From a virus (taxonomy: Duplodnaviria; Caudoviricetes), in IMG/VR virus record IMGVR_UViG_3300038406_000064, positions 1 to 31,688 of that record: a stretch of DNA of 31,688 nucleotides. One strand, given 5' to 3'. The notes beneath the pieces were generated by a model. The model was not told where the DNA came from. It did no database searches and saw nothing but the letters and a program-made list of their open reading frames with translations. Shown piece after piece: positions 12,410-23,316 of the stretch. A program made the translations under genes and the position numbers. Position 1 is the first letter of the stretch. The number at the start of each line of letters is the position of its first letter.

Positions 12410-12777
12410 AATTTTCTAGCCTCTGAAATGGTGAGAAGTAAGAGAGCAAAGCGATCTATTTGCGGTCTGCTCTCGTCTAAATTAGTTCCGAATCTGAGAT
12501 ACCGGTAGAGTTGAAATGCGGTTTCATTAACCAGATTCCACTGCTGGTAAGAGAAACACATGGGGCGAAATCTCAACTCGCTAGGGAATGCTGGCAACGG
12601 GGCAGTTACTTCTAAATTCCCTAGCCAATCTTGTACCTCACAAACTGTGGGGTGAAACAATTTTGCCACTATCGCAAGTCGTATAGTGGCAATCTGTTCT
12701 TCATTTCCTAATATTCTTGGTGCTTGAGGGAGCCTAGCTAGAGAGGCCCGCAATCTCTCAGTTATATCTGGAGCCAT
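12391..12777 (-). CDS. Hypothetical protein (128 aa)
   Basis: Co-oriented ORF packed between its neighbours. Confidence 0.65.
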   Translation of the reverse strand: MAPDITERLRASLARLPQAPRILGNEEQIATIRLAIVAKLFHPTVCEVQDWLGNLEVTAPLPAFPSELRFRPMCFSYQQWNLVNETAFQLYRYLRFGTNLDESRPQIDRFALLLLTISEARKLWTKES

Positions 12778-13283: not shown

Positions 13284-13529
13284 CTAAAGCCATTTCGAAT
13301 TAATCGGCAAGTGCAATGTAACTGTCAGTATACTTCCCTCGGATTTAAATCTCAAATGAGGGCGAAGATTCTTCTCTGACATTAATAGTTTGAATCCAAG
13401 ATCAATATCTTTTCTCTTAATTATTGCTCTCCGAAGTCGCCTGTGTGCCTCAGCTGGCGCAGTTAAGCGGACAACTCTATCTTGCTTTAGTTTGATCCAG
13501 ATACAGGAGTAGCGAGATTGGAGAGACAT
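13284..13529 (-). CDS. Hypothetical basic protein (81 aa), possibly nucleic-acid binding
   Basis: Very Arg/Lys-rich and co-oriented. Confidence 0.7.
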   Translation of the reverse strand: MSLQSRYSCIWIKLKQDRVVRLTAPAEAHRRLRRAIIKRKDIDLGFKLLMSEKNLRPHLRFKSEGSILTVTLHLPINSKWL

Positions 13530-13533
13530 AATA

Positions 13534-13731
13534 TTACACAGCTTTCTTTCTAGCGGGAACGAGGGTAAAGCCGGTCATATTAAAGCAATTAACATATTTA
13601 CCCCTCGGTAATTTTTCATTGCCCTTTGTAATTAAGGCGTGAGCGGCAAAACTAGGATCACAAGATGCGAAGATAACTTTAATTCTAACTGAGTTATCCT
13701 TGTTTTTATATATCCTATTATCTAGTAACAT
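13534..13731 (-). CDS. Hypothetical protein (65 aa)
   Basis: The ATG at 13731 is preceded by AAAGGA. The GTG start at 13794 lies inside an RNA hairpin and has no SD. Confidence 0.65.
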   Translation of the reverse strand: MLLDNRIYKNKDNSVRIKVIFASCDPSFAAHALITKGNEKLPRGKYVNCFNMTGFTLVPARKKAV

Positions 13732-13773
13732 AGTGGTTCCTTTGGAAGAGTTATGATTGGTTGCTACTGTTCT

Positions 13774-14399
13774 AATATCTACTCGGAAGCACACACCAGA
13801 GCTAATTTAGGGGTCTCTTTAGTGTACTAACGGCTAGATACTGTGGGAGTCGTAGGTTCTTTTCAAGTGGTTTATATCCAGAGCTAGTGGAACTCAACCC
13901 GCTTACTACTTCTACACTTCGTTATCTAACTACCTGCGCAGGGTTCTTATTGAAAACATAAAGGGAAGCCACGTCCCGATGCACCCTACAATCAGCGTGG
14001 CAATCCTTTAGATTCTCAACTTCACATATTTGAAATCTCCGGGAATTTTAGGGAATAAAGATTTAGTTAGGGATGCTAGCTTTTACGAGAGCTAGCGAAC
14101 TCGAAGGGCCAGTATGGCAGAAGTATGTAGTCTTATCGGATTAACTACTATCCATCTAGGTCTTTCGGATCGCCAAGTCATTTCTCGGAATCTCCTAAGT
14201 TAGGGTTCTAGAACTATCTTATCCATAACAAATCAAAGTAAGTTTGGAACAATTTCAATATTGAAGAGCCCACTACTCCGCGGTATTTTCGTCGCATCAC
14301 CTCAGTTCGTGCCTAGGATTGCTGAGGGTAGTTTGTAACTACTTTCGTTGCAGTAGTGGTCTCAAGATTACCGACTAATTATTTCTAACTAATCGGTAA
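13774..14399 (-). ncRNA. Candidate structured non-coding RNA or cluster of RNAs
   Basis: No long ORF on either strand. At least five adjacent stem-loop or multibranch elements, several with G-U pairs that work only on the minus strand, and one GAAA tetraloop. No family recognised. Confidence 0.6.
14092..14181 (-). CDS. Possible 29-aa peptide MTWRSERPRWIVVNPIRLHTSAILALRVR
   Basis: AGGAG lies 10 nt before the ATG. The TAG stop is embedded in a hairpin. Confidence 0.4.
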   Translation of the reverse strand: MTWRSERPRWIVVNPIRLHTSAILALRVR

Positions 14400-14435
14400 G
14401 GTTTGAAACTACTCTCTAGCTATATCTGCTAAATC

Positions 14436-15113
14436 CTAGAGATTCGCCAACAAAGCTGCGTCGTCCATCTTGAGGAAAGTATCAGCCTTATCAGCCAAGA
14501 AACTAATACAGTCCGAGAACTCTTCTGCCTTCGGAGCATTGGCGGCGTAAATAGCCAACTGATCTTTGAGCAACTGGAGAACAACTTTGTTGGTCTTGAT
14601 CTGTTGGAACTTGTTGAGAAGAATCTTGGAAGCATTGGTAACTTGCTCCAAAGATTTGCCAGTGGCGCCTGGCATAACTGCGATGTAATCCTTGCCAAAC
14701 TCTTCCCACTGTTCTTTGGCAATACCGCCGCCGCGACGTTCCGCTTTCGGCAGATTGGCAATAACTTCCCAGTTCAGTTGGTCATAAGGGAAGTTCTCGG
14801 CATTGATATCTTCCCGCTCTGAAACAATCTCGCGAGCGCGTTGGATTTGAACTTCGCGAATCGCTTCGACAATAAGTTCAAGGCGCTTACCGCCGGCTTC
14901 GAACTCTTTGACGATGCCCTCAACTGAGAGCAACGGAAGTTCAAGTTCAACTGACGGCCGCTTGGTTTCAACTTCCAGTCCGGTAACTTCATCTTTAGTA
15001 ACGATCTTGCGGAAGTTGAATTTGGTTGCGACCTTATCGACCGTGTTATCGAAGTTGGCGGCTACCGCTTTAGTTTCTTGAGCTTGCTCTTGCATTTCGT
15101 TTGCTTCGTTCAT
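14436..15113 (-). CDS. Hypothetical protein (225 aa), probably highly expressed
   Basis: SD AGGAG before the ATG at 15113 (MNEANEMQ). The listed TTG start at 15212 is the -35 box of its promoter. Strong C-ending codon bias. Confidence 0.88.
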   Translation of the reverse strand: MNEANEMQEQAQETKAVAANFDNTVDKVATKFNFRKIVTKDEVTGLEVETKRPSVELELPLLSVEGIVKEFEAGGKRLELIVEAIREVQIQRAREIVSEREDINAENFPYDQLNWEVIANLPKAERRGGGIAKEQWEEFGKDYIAVMPGATGKSLEQVTNASKILLNKFQQIKTNKVVLQLLKDQLAIYAANAPKAEEFSDCISFLADKADTFLKMDDAALLANL

Positions 15114-15183: not shown

Positions 15184-15212
15184 AGTATAGGGGCAGCGGG
15201 AAATGGTGTCAA
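15184..15212 (-). promoter_or_regulatory. Sigma70 promoter for the 225-aa gene
   Basis: TTGACA-17 nt-TATACT on the minus strand. Confidence 0.9.
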
Positions 15213-20214: not shown

Positions 20215-20778
20215 TTAGGAAAGAAGCTGGATAAGGTATTCTTTTTGTTTTTGTTCAGCAGCAGCAGCATCAGCAGCAGCAGCATCAGCAGCAGCATCAG
20301 CATCAGCAGCAGCATCAGCATCAGCAGCATCAGCAGCAGCATCAGCAGCAGCATCAGCAGCAGTATAAGCAGCAGTATAAGCATCAGCATAAGCAGCAGC
20401 ATCAGCAGCAGCATCAGCAGCATCAGCAGCATCAGCAGCAGCATCAGCAGCAGCAGCAGCATCAGCATAAGCAGCAGCAGCAGCATCAGCAGCAGCAGCA
20501 GCAGCAGCATCAGCAGCAGCAACATAAGCAGCAGCAGCCCGCTCTTTGCAAAAGACTACAAATTTCATCCAAGTTTCTTTGTGCTCAAACCATTCACACC
20601 TCATAGCCCAAATAGTATCTTTTACCCCGTTTGAGTACAGAAACTTTTTGTAATCAATCGGAGTATCAAGATTTTCTTGAAGCCATTCCACCCCAAAGTA
20701 TTCTTCGAATTTTCTTTTTCCGGAACTGCAAGGATTGAGAGCGTAAATCTTTCTCGCGGTAGTGGTAATAATAGTCAT
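20215..20778 (-). CDS. Alanine-rich repeat protein (187 aa)
   Basis: SD AAAGGA. An 80-aa unique N-terminus (NPCSSGKRKF...SNGVKDTIWAM), a 94-residue Ala/Asp/Tyr repeat, and a short C-terminal cap EQKQKEYLIQLLS. Confidence 0.85.
   Translation of the reverse strand: MTIITTTARKIYALNPCSSGKRKFEEYFGVEWLQENLDTPIDYKKFLYSNGVKDTIWAMRCEWFEHKETWMKFVVFCKERAAAAYVAAADAAAAAAADAAAAAYADAAAAADAAADAADAADAAADAAAYADAYTAAYTAADAAADAAADAADADAAADADAAADAAAADAAAAEQKQKEYLIQLLS
20257..20538. repeat. Imperfect (GCT)n triplet repeat, 94 codons
   Basis: Only GCT, GAT, TAT, ACT and GTT codons on the minus strand. Confidence 0.97.
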
Positions 20779-20780
20779 GA

Positions 20781-21230
20781 CTAGTTTCCTTTCGGCTGAA
20801 TTGTGAAGGTGCCTAAATCCATTGAATACAACTCAAATTCCAACTTCTTACCCTCTGCTACTTGTTCTTCGGTAAGCACTTCTCCACTTACCGCTTTCCC
20901 TGCCAGTAGATTATACTGATCTTCTTTAGATAATACTTCCATACCTCCTAGAGATTCTTTTATTTTTAGTTTCTCTAGATATCCAGCGGCGTCAGGTTTA
21001 TGAGAGGTTTCTGCCTCTTCCCCCAGACCTAATTTACCTGCAATAGTACTAGTTCCTGTTCTCTCATAAGCTACCGAATTCAACCCAACATTGATTTTAA
21101 ATATATATTGAGTCAGATAGCGATGTAGTTTGGTTCCTACTGTATCAGTGCAATCTCTTGTATTATCTCTCAAATACTCTAACTCCGACAGAGATAGTAC
21201 CGGGCGGTATTGATTTCGTTTTTGGTTCAT
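20781..21230 (-). CDS. Hypothetical protein (149 aa)
   Basis: SD GGAG. First gene after the promoter at 21307. Confidence 0.8.
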   Translation of the reverse strand: MNQKRNQYRPVLSLSELEYLRDNTRDCTDTVGTKLHRYLTQYIFKINVGLNSVAYERTGTSTIAGKLGLGEEAETSHKPDAAGYLEKLKIKESLGGMEVLSKEDQYNLLAGKAVSGEVLTEEQVAEGKKLEFELYSMDLGTFTIQPKGN

Positions 21231-21266
21231 AAGTTATTACTCCGGAGGAAAAATGTCGCCGCGTCA

Positions 21267-21280
21267 TGTGACATGTGACA
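21267..21280. repeat. Two tandem TGTGACA heptamers (TGTCACA on the minus strand)
   Basis: CATGTGACATGTGACATG is read directly. It covers the predicted start site of the adjacent promoter. Confidence 0.9.
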
Positions 21281-21307
21281 TGATACCCCTATCCCCCTCC
21301 CCGTCAA
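21280..21307 (-). promoter_or_regulatory. Sigma70-like promoter
   Basis: TTGACG-16 nt G-rich spacer-TATCAT. Confidence 0.6.
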
Positions 21308-21482
21308 GGGGGTAGTGCTCCATAACTTATATCCCTCATATCACCAATATTACCTAACCACTCCCATATCTCCATTACAGCGCTATTTCCCCTATACCAT
21401 ACCCACTAATAAGATATCGTATGCGTTACGAGGGCGGTATAGATTTTAGGGGGCTTTAAAAATTTAAATTTAAGAAAGGATA

Positions 21483-21554
21483 CTACATAACTAACTACTC
21501 TCATATAGGCACAGATAACTAGTAAGTGTGATATGAGAGTAGTTAGTTATGTAG
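21483..21554. repeat. Perfect 24-bp inverted repeat with a 24-nt spacer
   Basis: CTACATAACTAACTACTCTCATAT (21483-21506) and ATATGAGAGTAGTTAGTTATGTAG (21531-21554). Confidence 0.97.
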
Positions 21555-21600
21555 GATTCCGGAGAGGGGGCATAAATAGGGGAGGGTGGGGGGGGGGGTC

Positions 21601-21635
21601 TGTCACATGTCACATGTCACATGTCACCGTGACAG
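21601..21635. repeat. Tandem TGTCACA heptamers (three perfect, one imperfect) plus an inverted GTGACA
   Basis: TGTCACATGTCACATGTCACATGTCACCGTGACAG, preceded by a G-tract. Confidence 0.95.
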
Positions 21636-21677
21636 ATTACCCACCATAGTTACTATTTCCAGCTCTCCTTTCTTCTC

Positions 21678-22340
21678 TTAGAGCCCTAACATATCCGCTA
21701 CTTTGGGAGTAGCACCTGCTAGTTTCTCTTCACAGTACCTTACAATCGGATTCGCGGAGAGAGTTTCCGGCAACAGGCTAAAAGCTTTTTTCATCTTCGC
21801 AATTACATCCTCTGCGAGACTCAGATCCTTTTTCGCGAGTTGTACCATGATTCCGCGATAAGCCCCAACTACCTCTGTCTTCTTATCCGAATCAAGTTCT
21901 GGGAACTTCTCTCCCACCGCTCGGAAAAGAACCGGAGAAAGATTTGCATCGAACCAAGACGCGAGGCGTTCTTTACTTATCCGACCCTCTGTTACTTCCT
22001 GAGCCTGCAAATAGCTAACAATCTCGGAATCTGCGTAATCCCCTGCAACTATGCTGGAAGCTCCCGCTGCAATCAGAGTCTTGCAAACTTCCGCTCTCGT
22101 TTCTTGATACCAGCGAATAGCTCCGGAGAGAATCTGCTCATTCTCCAATGCAATGAGAAACTCTTCCCCTGTAGCCTCCGGAATAACTACTCCTTTGGAT
22201 TCTTTCCCAGTTCCTTTCTCAATCTTGCGAACCAGATACTGGCCTTGCTCCAGTTCTACTGATTTGAATTCAGCAAGAAGCTTAACCGGGAACGCGGCGG
22301 AAATGCTGGTGAGAGTATTGATAGTTTCAGTGGTTTCCAT
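21678..22340 (-). CDS. Hypothetical protein (220 aa)
   Basis: SD AAAGG. Long ORF with a helical pattern and weak resemblance to 14436-15113. Confidence 0.88.
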   Translation of the reverse strand: METTETINTLTSISAAFPVKLLAEFKSVELEQGQYLVRKIEKGTGKESKGVVIPEATGEEFLIALENEQILSGAIRWYQETRAEVCKTLIAAGASSIVAGDYADSEIVSYLQAQEVTEGRISKERLASWFDANLSPVLFRAVGEKFPELDSDKKTEVVGAYRGIMVQLAKKDLSLAEDVIAKMKKAFSLLPETLSANPIVRYCEEKLAGATPKVADMLGL

Positions 22341-22385
22341 GATGTAACCTTTCTAAAGTAAGCGAGTCAGGTCAAAGCGCCTGTA

Positions 22386-22418
22386 CTAAGACATAGCTAT
22401 ATTCTAGTTATGTCTTAG
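22386..22418. other. 14-bp hairpin in the leader of the 220-aa gene
   Basis: CTAAGACATAGCTA-TATTC-TAGTTATGTCTTAG, with one non-Watson-Crick position. Confidence 0.8.
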
Positions 22419-22441
22419 GCCCGAAACTCTGAGTCTTTGAA

Positions 22442-22636
22442 TTACTCCAAAGTAACCTTTTTGCTCTTCACATCGGGGTAATTCTTCTTATGGCCATCAA
22501 CGATCATTTTAGCTACCTTGTCCCCGCTTCCGCCGACAATGCTTAGCACACAATCGTGACTCAGAGAATAAATCAAAATTACAGTTTTTGGCCCGGGACG
22601 AAATATAAGTTTCTGCTGTTCATATTCTTTGCTCAT
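22442..22636 (-). CDS. Hypothetical early protein (64 aa)
   Basis: SD AGGAG. Confidence 0.75.
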   Translation of the reverse strand: MSKEYEQQKLIFRPGPKTVILIYSLSHDCVLSIVGGSGDKVAKMIVDGHKKNYPDVKSKKVTLE

Positions 22637-22647
22637 GTCATCATCTC

Positions 22648-22800
22648 CTAACGAGTGGGATACCTGCCAAACAGAGCGAAGTAGAACATATCAAAGTTGT
22701 CTGGTTTCTGCGCCCTCTTGCATTCCGCTTTGTGTTGTGTGGCTGCAAACTTCAATCCATGCACTGCGGAGTTGTTCCTGATCTTCCAAGTATTAAACAT
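22648..22800 (-). CDS. Small early protein (50 aa, MFNTWKIRNNSAVHG...), not in the ORF track
   Basis: SD AAAGGA. Starts 1 nt after the upstream stop and ends at the next gene's SD. Confidence 0.7.
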   Translation of the reverse strand: MFNTWKIRNNSAVHGLKFAATQHKAECKRAQKPDNFDMFYFALFGRYPTR

Positions 22801-22801
22801 T

Positions 22802-22960
22802 TCAGAGTTCCTTTCCAAAGTAATTAACCTGCACTTGTTTCACTGTATCCACTATGCAGTAGAACCTCGTGTAATGCCTTTTCAAGTACGCCCTGATTTC
22901 CTGCATGGTTGCAACTTCCGCAAGAATCCGGCCTGTAGTGGTTTCAATTAGTCTAAACAT
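22802..22960 (-). CDS. Small early protein (52 aa, MFRLIETTTGRILAEV...), not in the ORF track
   Basis: SD GAGAGG. First ORF after the promoter at 23027. Confidence 0.7.
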   Translation of the reverse strand: MFRLIETTTGRILAEVATMQEIRAYLKRHYTRFYCIVDTVKQVQVNYFGKEL

Positions 22961-22998
22961 CGCGCGCCTCTCGTCCAGTGAGTTTATTTGATGTATCT

Positions 22999-23027
22999 AG
23001 TATAGCTATCTCTTTTCTCAATTGCAA
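22999..23027 (-). promoter_or_regulatory. Leftward early sigma70 promoter
   Basis: TTGCAA-17 nt-TATACT with an A-rich, UP-like sequence upstream. Confidence 0.75.
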
Positions 23028-23093
23028 TCTTTTTTCTCTATATCTTCCAACTAAATTGTAACAGTGTGTAACAGTCCACAACTCCTCTACTAC

Positions 23094-23113
23094 CATACTA
23101 GTATACTAGTATG
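23094..23113. repeat. Perfect 20-bp palindrome in the divergence region
   Basis: CATACTAGTATACTAGTATG. Confidence 0.95.
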
Positions 23114-23257
23114 CTAGATATCTTTAGTGGGGGGAGGGGTAGAGGCCTTTTTAGATTCTGTGCGCGCGGTCCTCCTAAGAGACTCTCCAAATTTTTCTAA
23201 ACTTTTTTCCAACTCCCTTCCACCTCTACTAACTCCTGAGCTCTCTTAAGTTACCCA

Positions 23258-23286
23258 TTGCTCTAACTCCCCACTACCTCTACAAT
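23258..23286 (+). promoter_or_regulatory. Rightward sigma70-like promoter of the packaging/virion operon
   Basis: TTGCTC-17 nt-TACAAT, 30 nt upstream of the terS start. Confidence 0.65.
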
Positions 23287-23316
23287 ATCAGCAATCTAAA
23301 GAAAGGAGTGCCCAAA

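Follow-up and report, generated by a model that had tools for sequence, protein, structure and literature searches.

The structured RNA feature behind the 225-aa gene of this phage is real and is narrower than the approximately 630 nt claimed for it in an earlier note: it comprises two short modules, designated alpha and beta, that lie in a slot between two conserved genes. Two conserved frames were recovered from related phages, along with covariation in their stems, separate gain and loss of the modules, replacement of the arms that the frames carry, a conserved promoter, and tRNAs or other RNA motifs as cargo in the slots of relatives. Tentatively, we favor a reading in which the slot is a cargo site for two portable RNA modules, with conserved frames and exchangeable arms, that would release decoy-type RNAs.

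The window (the whole stretch of 31,688 nucleotides analyzed here) is a 31.7-kb fragment, estimated to be 72% complete, of the genome of an uncultured podophage. It encodes a terminase, a portal protein, a capsid protein, a family A polymerase, a primase, and Sak4-like and Dda-like proteins. The capsid protein is 38 to 39% identical to those of Pseudomonas phages PaP2, 119X, and PaMx41 and of Polaromonas phage Tiera. The gap between the 225-aa gene and the 65-aa open reading frame (ORF) (13732-14435; 704 nt) is the largest between the listed genes of the window, the next being 447 and then 347 nt, and its longest stop-free stretch is 51 codons. The features of the region are collected in Table 1, with the loci (L numbers) at which recurring motifs were found in relatives.

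Table 1. Features of the slot and its surroundings in the window, and loci of motifs found in the slots of relatives
Feature	Position or loci	Strand	Description
Sigma-70-type promoter	15184..15212	minus	matches 11/12 of consensus; upstream of 225-aa gene
225-aa protein, conserved	14436..15113	minus	fixed upstream border of slot
Module alpha	14266..14412	minus	~150 nt; 5/114 loci
Alpha head strand	14400-14412	minus	
Alpha hairpin A	14368-14399	minus	sequence free, pairing kept
Alpha central strand	14352-14367	minus	
Alpha arm B	between central and closing strands	minus	
Alpha closing strand	14266-14277	minus	
Window-specific insert	13945..14265	minus	~320 nt between modules; hairpin C 13959-14010, short hairpin 14075-14096
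29-codon ORF	14092..14181	minus	ribosome-binding-like site 14192-14196; outside both modules
Module beta	13774..13944	minus	~170 nt; 6/114 loci and one unrelated phage (L335)
Beta 5' element P1	13932..13944	minus	weak hairpin around 10-nt self-complementary stretch 13933-13942
Beta upstream strand S	13923..13934	minus	pairs with central strand in state 1
Beta variable arm D	13843..13922	minus	
Beta hairpin E, state 2	13774..13842	minus	central strand 13831-13842, variable arm 13787-13830, downstream strand 13774-13786
65-aa accessory ORF	13534..13731	minus	3' of RNA modules; no family
81-aa protein, conserved, basic	13284..13529	minus	fixed downstream border of slot
H-type pseudoknot motif	L016, L028, L056, L058, L060, L070, L073, L075, L078, L080, L083, L084, L109, L132, L136, L137, L139; also L212-L323		
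Second motif set	L002, L004, L027, L033, L050, L053, L054, L055, L101, L108, L116		150-600 nt past stop
Further long-stem motif, 10 loci	L060, L061, L064, L068, L070, L075, L080, L081, L083, L131		
Further long-stem motif, 4 loci	L017, L018, L022, L093		

The earlier note had described five back-to-back, strand-specific structures (A to E), and each was present in the sequence with the coordinates and letters given for it. Individual stretches were folded against 200 dinucleotide shuffles on both strands. Hairpin A (z = -8.41 on the minus strand and -3.57 on the plus strand), fold B (-3.55 and -3.24), hairpin C (-2.60 and -3.86), and hairpin E (-4.83 and -2.77) beat chance, whereas D, which had been taken for a second multibranch fold (13956-13860), did not (+0.37 and +0.64; 123/200 shuffles folded as well on the minus strand); its 5' arm is the conserved P1 element of beta. 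The stretch 14350-14415 folded at z = -6.84. The structures are not back to back, as z was 0.03 for 14100-14240 and -1.18 for 14010-14110. Against 20 shuffles per strand, the whole 626 nt folded at -175.1 kcal/mol (z = -3.68) on the minus strand and at -174.4 kcal/mol (z = -4.14) on the plus strand. Overall, structure in the region exceeds the chance level. Judged by energy alone, strand specificity held for hairpins A and E, but the region as a whole folds equally well on both strands. A strong fold (z of about -6 on both strands) was also observed within coding sequence at 12580-12699, and further long noncoding stretches lie near the divergent early/late boundary of the window (21230-21678 and 22340-23308).

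The motif GTAGTT occurs at all four minus-strand places that had been pointed out, but the hexamer is enriched throughout the genome (37 occurrences versus 13.9 expected). Even against this background, four copies on one strand within 705 nt are an excess (Poisson P = 0.0014); the conserved heads of alpha and beta account for two of them.

For the 225-aa protein, 517 homologues were found, and 148 loci were fetched around them, of which 114 were distinct, including the window (113 related loci). The near-consensus promoter that had been placed at 15212 is present, and it likely also drives the slot behind the 225-aa gene. A promoter score of at least 10 was found upstream of this gene in 78/95 related loci, compared with 3/95 inside the gene as a control. 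The 225-aa protein matched no PHROG or Pfam family above the cutoff; its structural model (pLDDT of 82.5) had one viral structural homologue and a best Z of 6.3 against the PDB, a comparison in which only residues 130 to 223 were well tested. BLAST searches of the 225-aa protein and the region against cultured phages gave no real match, and the profile of the 225-aa family found no match in Tiera or Aeromonas phage P5. Elsewhere in the window, a 220-aa early protein (21678-22340) contains a stretch that, by eye, looks like the glycine-rich motif conserved in the 225-aa protein, and it may be a distant paralogue. The 81-aa protein was matched in 81/114 loci, and its family profile matched one gene in Aeromonas phage P5. 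The model of this protein is a small alpha/beta fold (pLDDT of 85.6) with no Foldseek match at an E value of 0.001 or better; among its weak neighbors are KH, R3H, and SpoVS domains (E values of 0.4 to 1), some of them nucleic acid binding, and a sequence search of the family yielded no solved relative. The 65-aa ORF is missing from this place in most relatives. The 225-aa and 81-aa genes would be better read as the borders of the slot than as partners of the RNAs, because both genes persist where the modules are absent.

Alpha combines a hairpin of free sequence with a branched arm. The pairing of hairpin A was perfect across copies of unrelated sequence, and the stem closing B was supported by covariation in relatives. 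The alpha central strand can pair either with the upstream head strand or with the strand that closes arm B, an alternative pairing seen in the columns of the window, L006, and L127 only. A degenerate sixth copy was noticed by eye in L071. The two modules come and go separately: alpha occurs without beta in L100, and beta occurs without alpha in L124, L008, and L335, with L008 carrying an additional bare E hairpin. The proposal of a single RNA of approximately 630 nt is not supported, given this separation and given that the 320 nt between the modules occur in the window alone. Apart from one 15-nt match at an E value of 0.20, this insert matched nothing in the other loci, and in L085 and L127 it is absent, so that alpha directly abuts beta. 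Hairpin C, which lies in the insert, folds better than chance but is unconserved. The 29-codon ORF, which was not seen in relatives and is unique to the window, may be chance. A type I toxin-antitoxin system was rejected on this ground, on the position of this ORF outside both modules, and on the lack of a conserved peptide tied to the switch.

The frames and the arms differ in how they change. The sequence and pairing of alpha and beta were kept across phages whose proteins are 56 to 75% identical, and also in the unrelated phage. Between L085 and L127, 315/333 nt are identical in the upstream gene (95%) and 214/230 downstream; the frames are kept and arm A is identical, and arms B, D, and E are no more alike than shuffled sequences (P = 0.13 to 0.55). 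Likewise, 14 of 15 pairwise comparisons of arm D among the six clade copies were no better than shuffled, and the remaining pair, the window versus L008, scored above all 300 shuffles and is treated as a lead. At the level of whole modules, L019 and L100 share 94% identity in the gene, with a terminator-like hairpin in the slot of the former versus alpha in that of the latter. From these comparisons of sequence, the arms appear to be replaced faster than synonymous change, with the frames kept. When the arms were considered as guides, no above-chance match to the window or to any locus was found; one arm matched the arm of another motif at 19/21 positions (E value of 0.42).

Covariation was clearest in hairpin E, which RNAalifold selected unaided. 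Across seven aligned copies of beta, two-sided changes were present in 9 of 21 pairs (9 of 18 in a second count), and 90.8% of cells were paired, compared with 28 to 49% in slid controls. None of 500 shuffles was as good, a count that overstates the support, since the five alpha and seven beta copies include several close kin. A second pairing, designated state 1, joins the central strand to upstream strand S. As a helix of eight pairs, it was paired in 94.6% of cells with one two-sided change; in a count of 13 pairs, 96.7% of cells were paired, two pairs had changed on both sides, and 9/500 shuffles did as well. The three central positions that are mismatched in state 2 are invariant and are paired in state 1, and one substitution in L008 was compensated in both partners. 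The two states lie within 0.1 to 4.8 kcal/mol of each other in all six clade copies. For transcripts cut after the central strand, the probability of state 1 was 0.72 to 1.00 in these six copies and 0.04 in the unrelated phage. The two-state pairing and the covariation counts, coming from seven partly related sequences, are suggestive rather than proof. Covariation among the few copies available (five of alpha, seven of beta) supports the earlier idea of selection on RNA in hairpins A and E and in the closing stem of B, but not in C and D. In the covarying stems, G-U alternates with G-C and A-U pairs, and one U-G pair is invariant; hairpin E keeps, in 6/7 copies, a C-A mismatch that would be G-U on the other strand.

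The 5' element of beta lies approximately 100 nt upstream of E and has 14 invariant columns. Approximately 23 invariant columns cluster at helix junctions in beta, with the arms varying freely. In P1, the three closing pairs are invariant in all seven copies and the 10-nt dyad is perfect in 6/7. In L124, the center of P1 is UGCA instead of GCGC, a clean switch between palindromic tetramers (the chance of a palindromic tetramer being 1 in 16), and L008 shows a partial switch. The P1 self-duplex was computed at -15 to -22 kcal/mol, versus -1 to -4 kcal/mol for the hairpin, in the six clade copies. Taken whole, the beta of the window folds no better than shuffles (z = -0.55), and the sense strand folded clearly better than the antisense strand in only 3/8 homologue stretches, giving a mixed strand preference. 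The copy in the unrelated phage was found at an E value of 8e-9; it sits alone between two small ORFs, and none of 20 window proteins had a match in that phage.

The content of the slot varies widely among relatives. Its length ranged from 75 to 1,591 nt, with a median of 266 nt, in the 81 loci with an 81-aa match. A scored motif or tRNA was present in 50/114 loci and none of the scored motifs in 64/114; the recurring motifs were defined by eye from the same sequences, and their counts are descriptive. Terminator-like hairpins were found in 13/21 short slots, and small ORFs fill the slot in other relatives. In L060 and L110, inserted ORFs resemble, by eye, HNH homing endonucleases. tRNAs were found in 7 of the 115 loci scanned; in six of these they lie inside the slot, all on the sense strand, and in the seventh the tRNA lies just beyond the 81-aa gene. 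None of the alpha or beta loci carries a tRNA itself. When 40 related loci were compared with Rfam at the gathering score, tRNAs alone were found and no slot motif was matched. By its sequence content, the slot is comparable to the regions in which larger phages carry RNA cargo, and the tRNAs and other RNA motifs in relatives would fit the set of processed small RNAs that had been suggested.

One of the motifs is an H-type pseudoknot of 25 to 30 nt with covarying stems, present in 21/114 slots and matching nothing in Rfam. One strict pattern located it in 112 viral contigs, which represent many phage types. In 18 of 91 distinct contexts, a tRNA lies within 400 nt, often with the motif directly 5' of it, and 19/19 of these tRNAs are on the strand of the motif. 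A 95-nt element with T-arm-like hairpins (L083:3304-3398 and L324:2501-2596) is 82% shared with the Pseudomonas jumbo phage D6, in which the counterpart of the L083 insert is unannotated DNA directly 3' of a tRNA-Leu gene. A second set of modular RNA motifs, of three or four kinds, has constant cores and variable arms and is chained by similar closing stems; those tested had no Rfam match. Two further motifs, in 10/114 and 4/114 loci, are long stems in which an asymmetric internal loop is conserved and the tip varies. In L080 (about 3' of 1980) and L083 (3560-3660), a tRNA-like element with an enlarged middle was missed by ARAGORN and at Rfam gathering scores. In 35 kb of slot, T-loop-like hairpins numbered 26 on the sense and 8 on the antisense strand, versus 19 in 68 kb of coding control; some of those in slots are true tRNAs, and the window slot has none.

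A quick tree was built from 111/114 loci, omitting three partial proteins that included two alpha-beta loci. The rows nearest to the window, where support was weak, include L001 and L086, both without alpha and beta. Three pattern scans of IMG/VR gave only already known loci and chance matches. A further scan returned 41 matches, among which one had the hairpin and was already known, and another returned 21 matches, with two known and one new. A sequence-only model run on 100 sources and 50 whole records (50 of 74 viral loci) found only training copies and weak fragments with E values above 0.002. Among the sequencing runs listed for this DNA, none was of RNA; one DNA run contained it in full and may be its source, and two others do not cover the slot.

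The modules were compared with known RNA families. The Rfam and ARAGORN searches that the earlier note had recommended revealed neither an RNA family nor a tRNA in the region. Rfam 15 at E values up to 1 gave one spurious match in the window, at 20222-20492, the source of which is a long alanine-aspartate low-complexity repeat in a 187-aa ORF (20215-20778). At E values up to 10, 13730-14440 gave a single match (E value of 9.4) and L127 330-740 gave two (E values of 8 to 9). ARAGORN found no tRNA or tmRNA genes in the window. Presumed likenesses to a group I/II intron, Y RNA, CRISPR repeat, and tracrRNA were accompanied by no model match. RNA anti-CRISPRs are solitary repeat units, and we take the ends of alpha to recall CRISPR repeat ends; this candidate was rejected on the free sequence of hairpin A and on the lack of a match to any Rfam repeat model. 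T4 RNAC and RNAD are stable non-tRNA RNAs of a phage tRNA region that are released by processing, a release that is predicted for alpha and beta. Phage RNAs near tRNAs without known function are a known kind, and alpha and beta match no Rfam family. In a literature search, five motif strings were found in no paper of the collection searched, and the papers listed by topic showed no description of the motifs.

GOLLD and ROOL, in the account given in parts of PMC12286853, are phage structured RNAs of unknown function found at tRNA islands. Like alpha and beta, they are phage encoded and have variable linkers inside a conserved frame (PMC12286853, same parts); as for placement with tRNAs, the slot holds them in 6/115 loci. 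Unlike them, alpha and beta match no covariance model, are independent RNAs of approximately 150 and 170 nt, and have no tRNA in their loci. A large ornate RNA of the GOLLD/ROOL type was rejected, there being two independent modules around an unconserved middle of 320 nt rather than one fold of more than 500 nt. In loop L9.3 of OLE RNA, a central tetramer that switches between palindromes is read as a symmetric intermolecular kissing pair, as described in the OLE portion of PMC12286853. Beta P1 may be similar to L9.3 in that portion of the source, its palindromic loop center switching between tetramers, but it shows one clean and one partial switch in seven copies, has a marginal stem of 3 to 4 bp, and matches no model; OLE, as that portion describes it, is 600 nt and chromosomal, unlike beta. 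The relevant sections of PMC11464382 report that the tRNA-Lys of phage T5 neutralizes PARIS, and the T5 case as given there resembles the slot in being RNA cargo of a dispensable, variable region, relatives' slots holding true tRNAs. Alpha and beta differ in that they are not tRNAs. A set of 8,495 candidate structured RNAs from IMG/VR is described in part of PMC10690425, and alpha and beta may be among them.

According to the reading that we tentatively favor, alpha and beta would likely be transcribed by read-through from the promoter that serves the 225-aa gene, and host ribonucleases would likely cut the modules out at the long imperfect stems, which are long enough for RNase III. In the folding model, beta would first pair its central strand upstream and then switch to hairpin E once the 3' strand had been made. 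By analogy, the predicted role of the released RNAs is that of trans-acting decoys for host defense proteins that bind or cleave RNA. A decoy role is suggested because relatives have tRNA neighbors (a tRNA neutralizes PARIS, according to sections of PMC11464382) and because the arms turn over as in an arms race. Several observations count against the cargo reading: the lack of tRNAs at the alpha and beta loci, the folding of whole beta and the mixed strand preference, the C-A mismatch kept in hairpin E, the weakness of state 1 in the unrelated phage, and the position of beta there, alone between two ORFs, which would suit a role in cis. A bolder version, in which beta is a new programmable phage RNA, is distinctly unlikely; it would be a constant two-state frame that dimerizes via its palindromic loop and carries hypervariable arms, swapped by recombination, as baits or guides against host defense proteins, and it would be expressed from an RNA cargo bay with approximately 10 further undescribed motifs common to unrelated phages.

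The main competitor, possible though less probable than the decoy reading, is that alpha and beta are signals in cis on the mRNA (RNase III-type stems, 3' stabilizers, or attenuating switches) that keep the output of the 225-aa gene high and that of the downstream replication genes lower, with the arms as neutral filler. In many short slots, a terminator-like hairpin is all that is present, and in L100 alpha stands in place of one; beta is a candidate two-state element, its upstream helix is predicted to form first, and it is the last element before the start of the next gene. Its solitary position in L335 and the second bare E hairpin in L008 also fit, and this explanation accounts for the position and switch of beta nearly as well as the cargo reading does. 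A helix of about 11 bp is required by RNase III, which cleaves the T7 early mRNA at five such signals (PMC3867540, in the part on these signals). Like A and E, the T7 signals described there are long imperfect intergenic hairpins in polycistronic mRNA; helices of about 11 bp, mismatches allowed, were found in A (14 bp) and in E (8 + 2 + 7 bp with small internal loops). In contrast, the modules are single copy per genome, an invariant 5' element lies far from the stem, and there are an alternative helix and large arms that vary; a cleavage stem needs neither an invariant element 100 nt upstream nor large folded arms. Moreover, in the window neither state masks a ribosome-binding site or has a terminal U run, and the close relatives L001 and L086 manage without the modules.

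The remaining explanations are less probable. Small ribozymes have invariant junctions with freely varying arms, as does beta, and theta ribozymes, which are HDV-like, occur beside phage tRNAs. A new ribozyme that cleaves itself or exchanges strands, in beta and perhaps alpha, with the junction as catalytic core and dispensable arms, would process the transcript without host enzymes; it is very unlikely, as no Rfam ribozyme matched even at an E value of 10 and no pseudoknot pairing for the P1 loop was found by eye. A dedicated RNA-protein module, with the RNA bound by one of the flanking proteins (225 or 81 aa), which the earlier note had put forward, would fit the adjacency, the common promoter, and the basic 81-aa protein with its weak KH, R3H, and SpoVS neighbors. 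This proposal has become highly improbable: both genes are kept in slots of less than 140 nt or with other cargo, and beta was found in a phage record (51% complete) with no 225-aa homologue. There is a slight chance that the conserved pieces act as DNA, i.e., as a dyad operator (13933-13942) or as hairpins of a replication origin or recombination site. The perfect dyad in 6/7 copies, the equal folding of the plus strand, and the position upstream of replication genes favor this, but the G-U, G-C, and A-U alternation in covarying stems and the invariant U-G pair do not; most relatives have none of the elements, which an origin would not allow, and the slot holds tRNAs. Least probable of all are decayed small ORFs or chance structure. 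The middle 320 nt, unconserved, partly unstructured, and containing the 29-codon ORF, would fit decay, as would the small ORFs in other slots. Since alpha and beta are kept across phages with compensatory changes, decay could hold for the insert only; for the modules, it is refuted by covariation.

These findings bear on the small RNAs of phage tRNA regions, for which a function has long been lacking. In this group of 43-kb podophages, one fixed slot can hold a terminator, tRNAs, or any of many small RNA folds not described before. As RNAs of 150 to 170 nt, the modules can be synthesized, and the natural presence/absence and arm-swap pairs make a role as cargo RNA directly testable. If it is true that the arms are baits or guides, they would represent a new form of RNA-based counterdefense; if the modules are switches in cis, they would still be new motif families.
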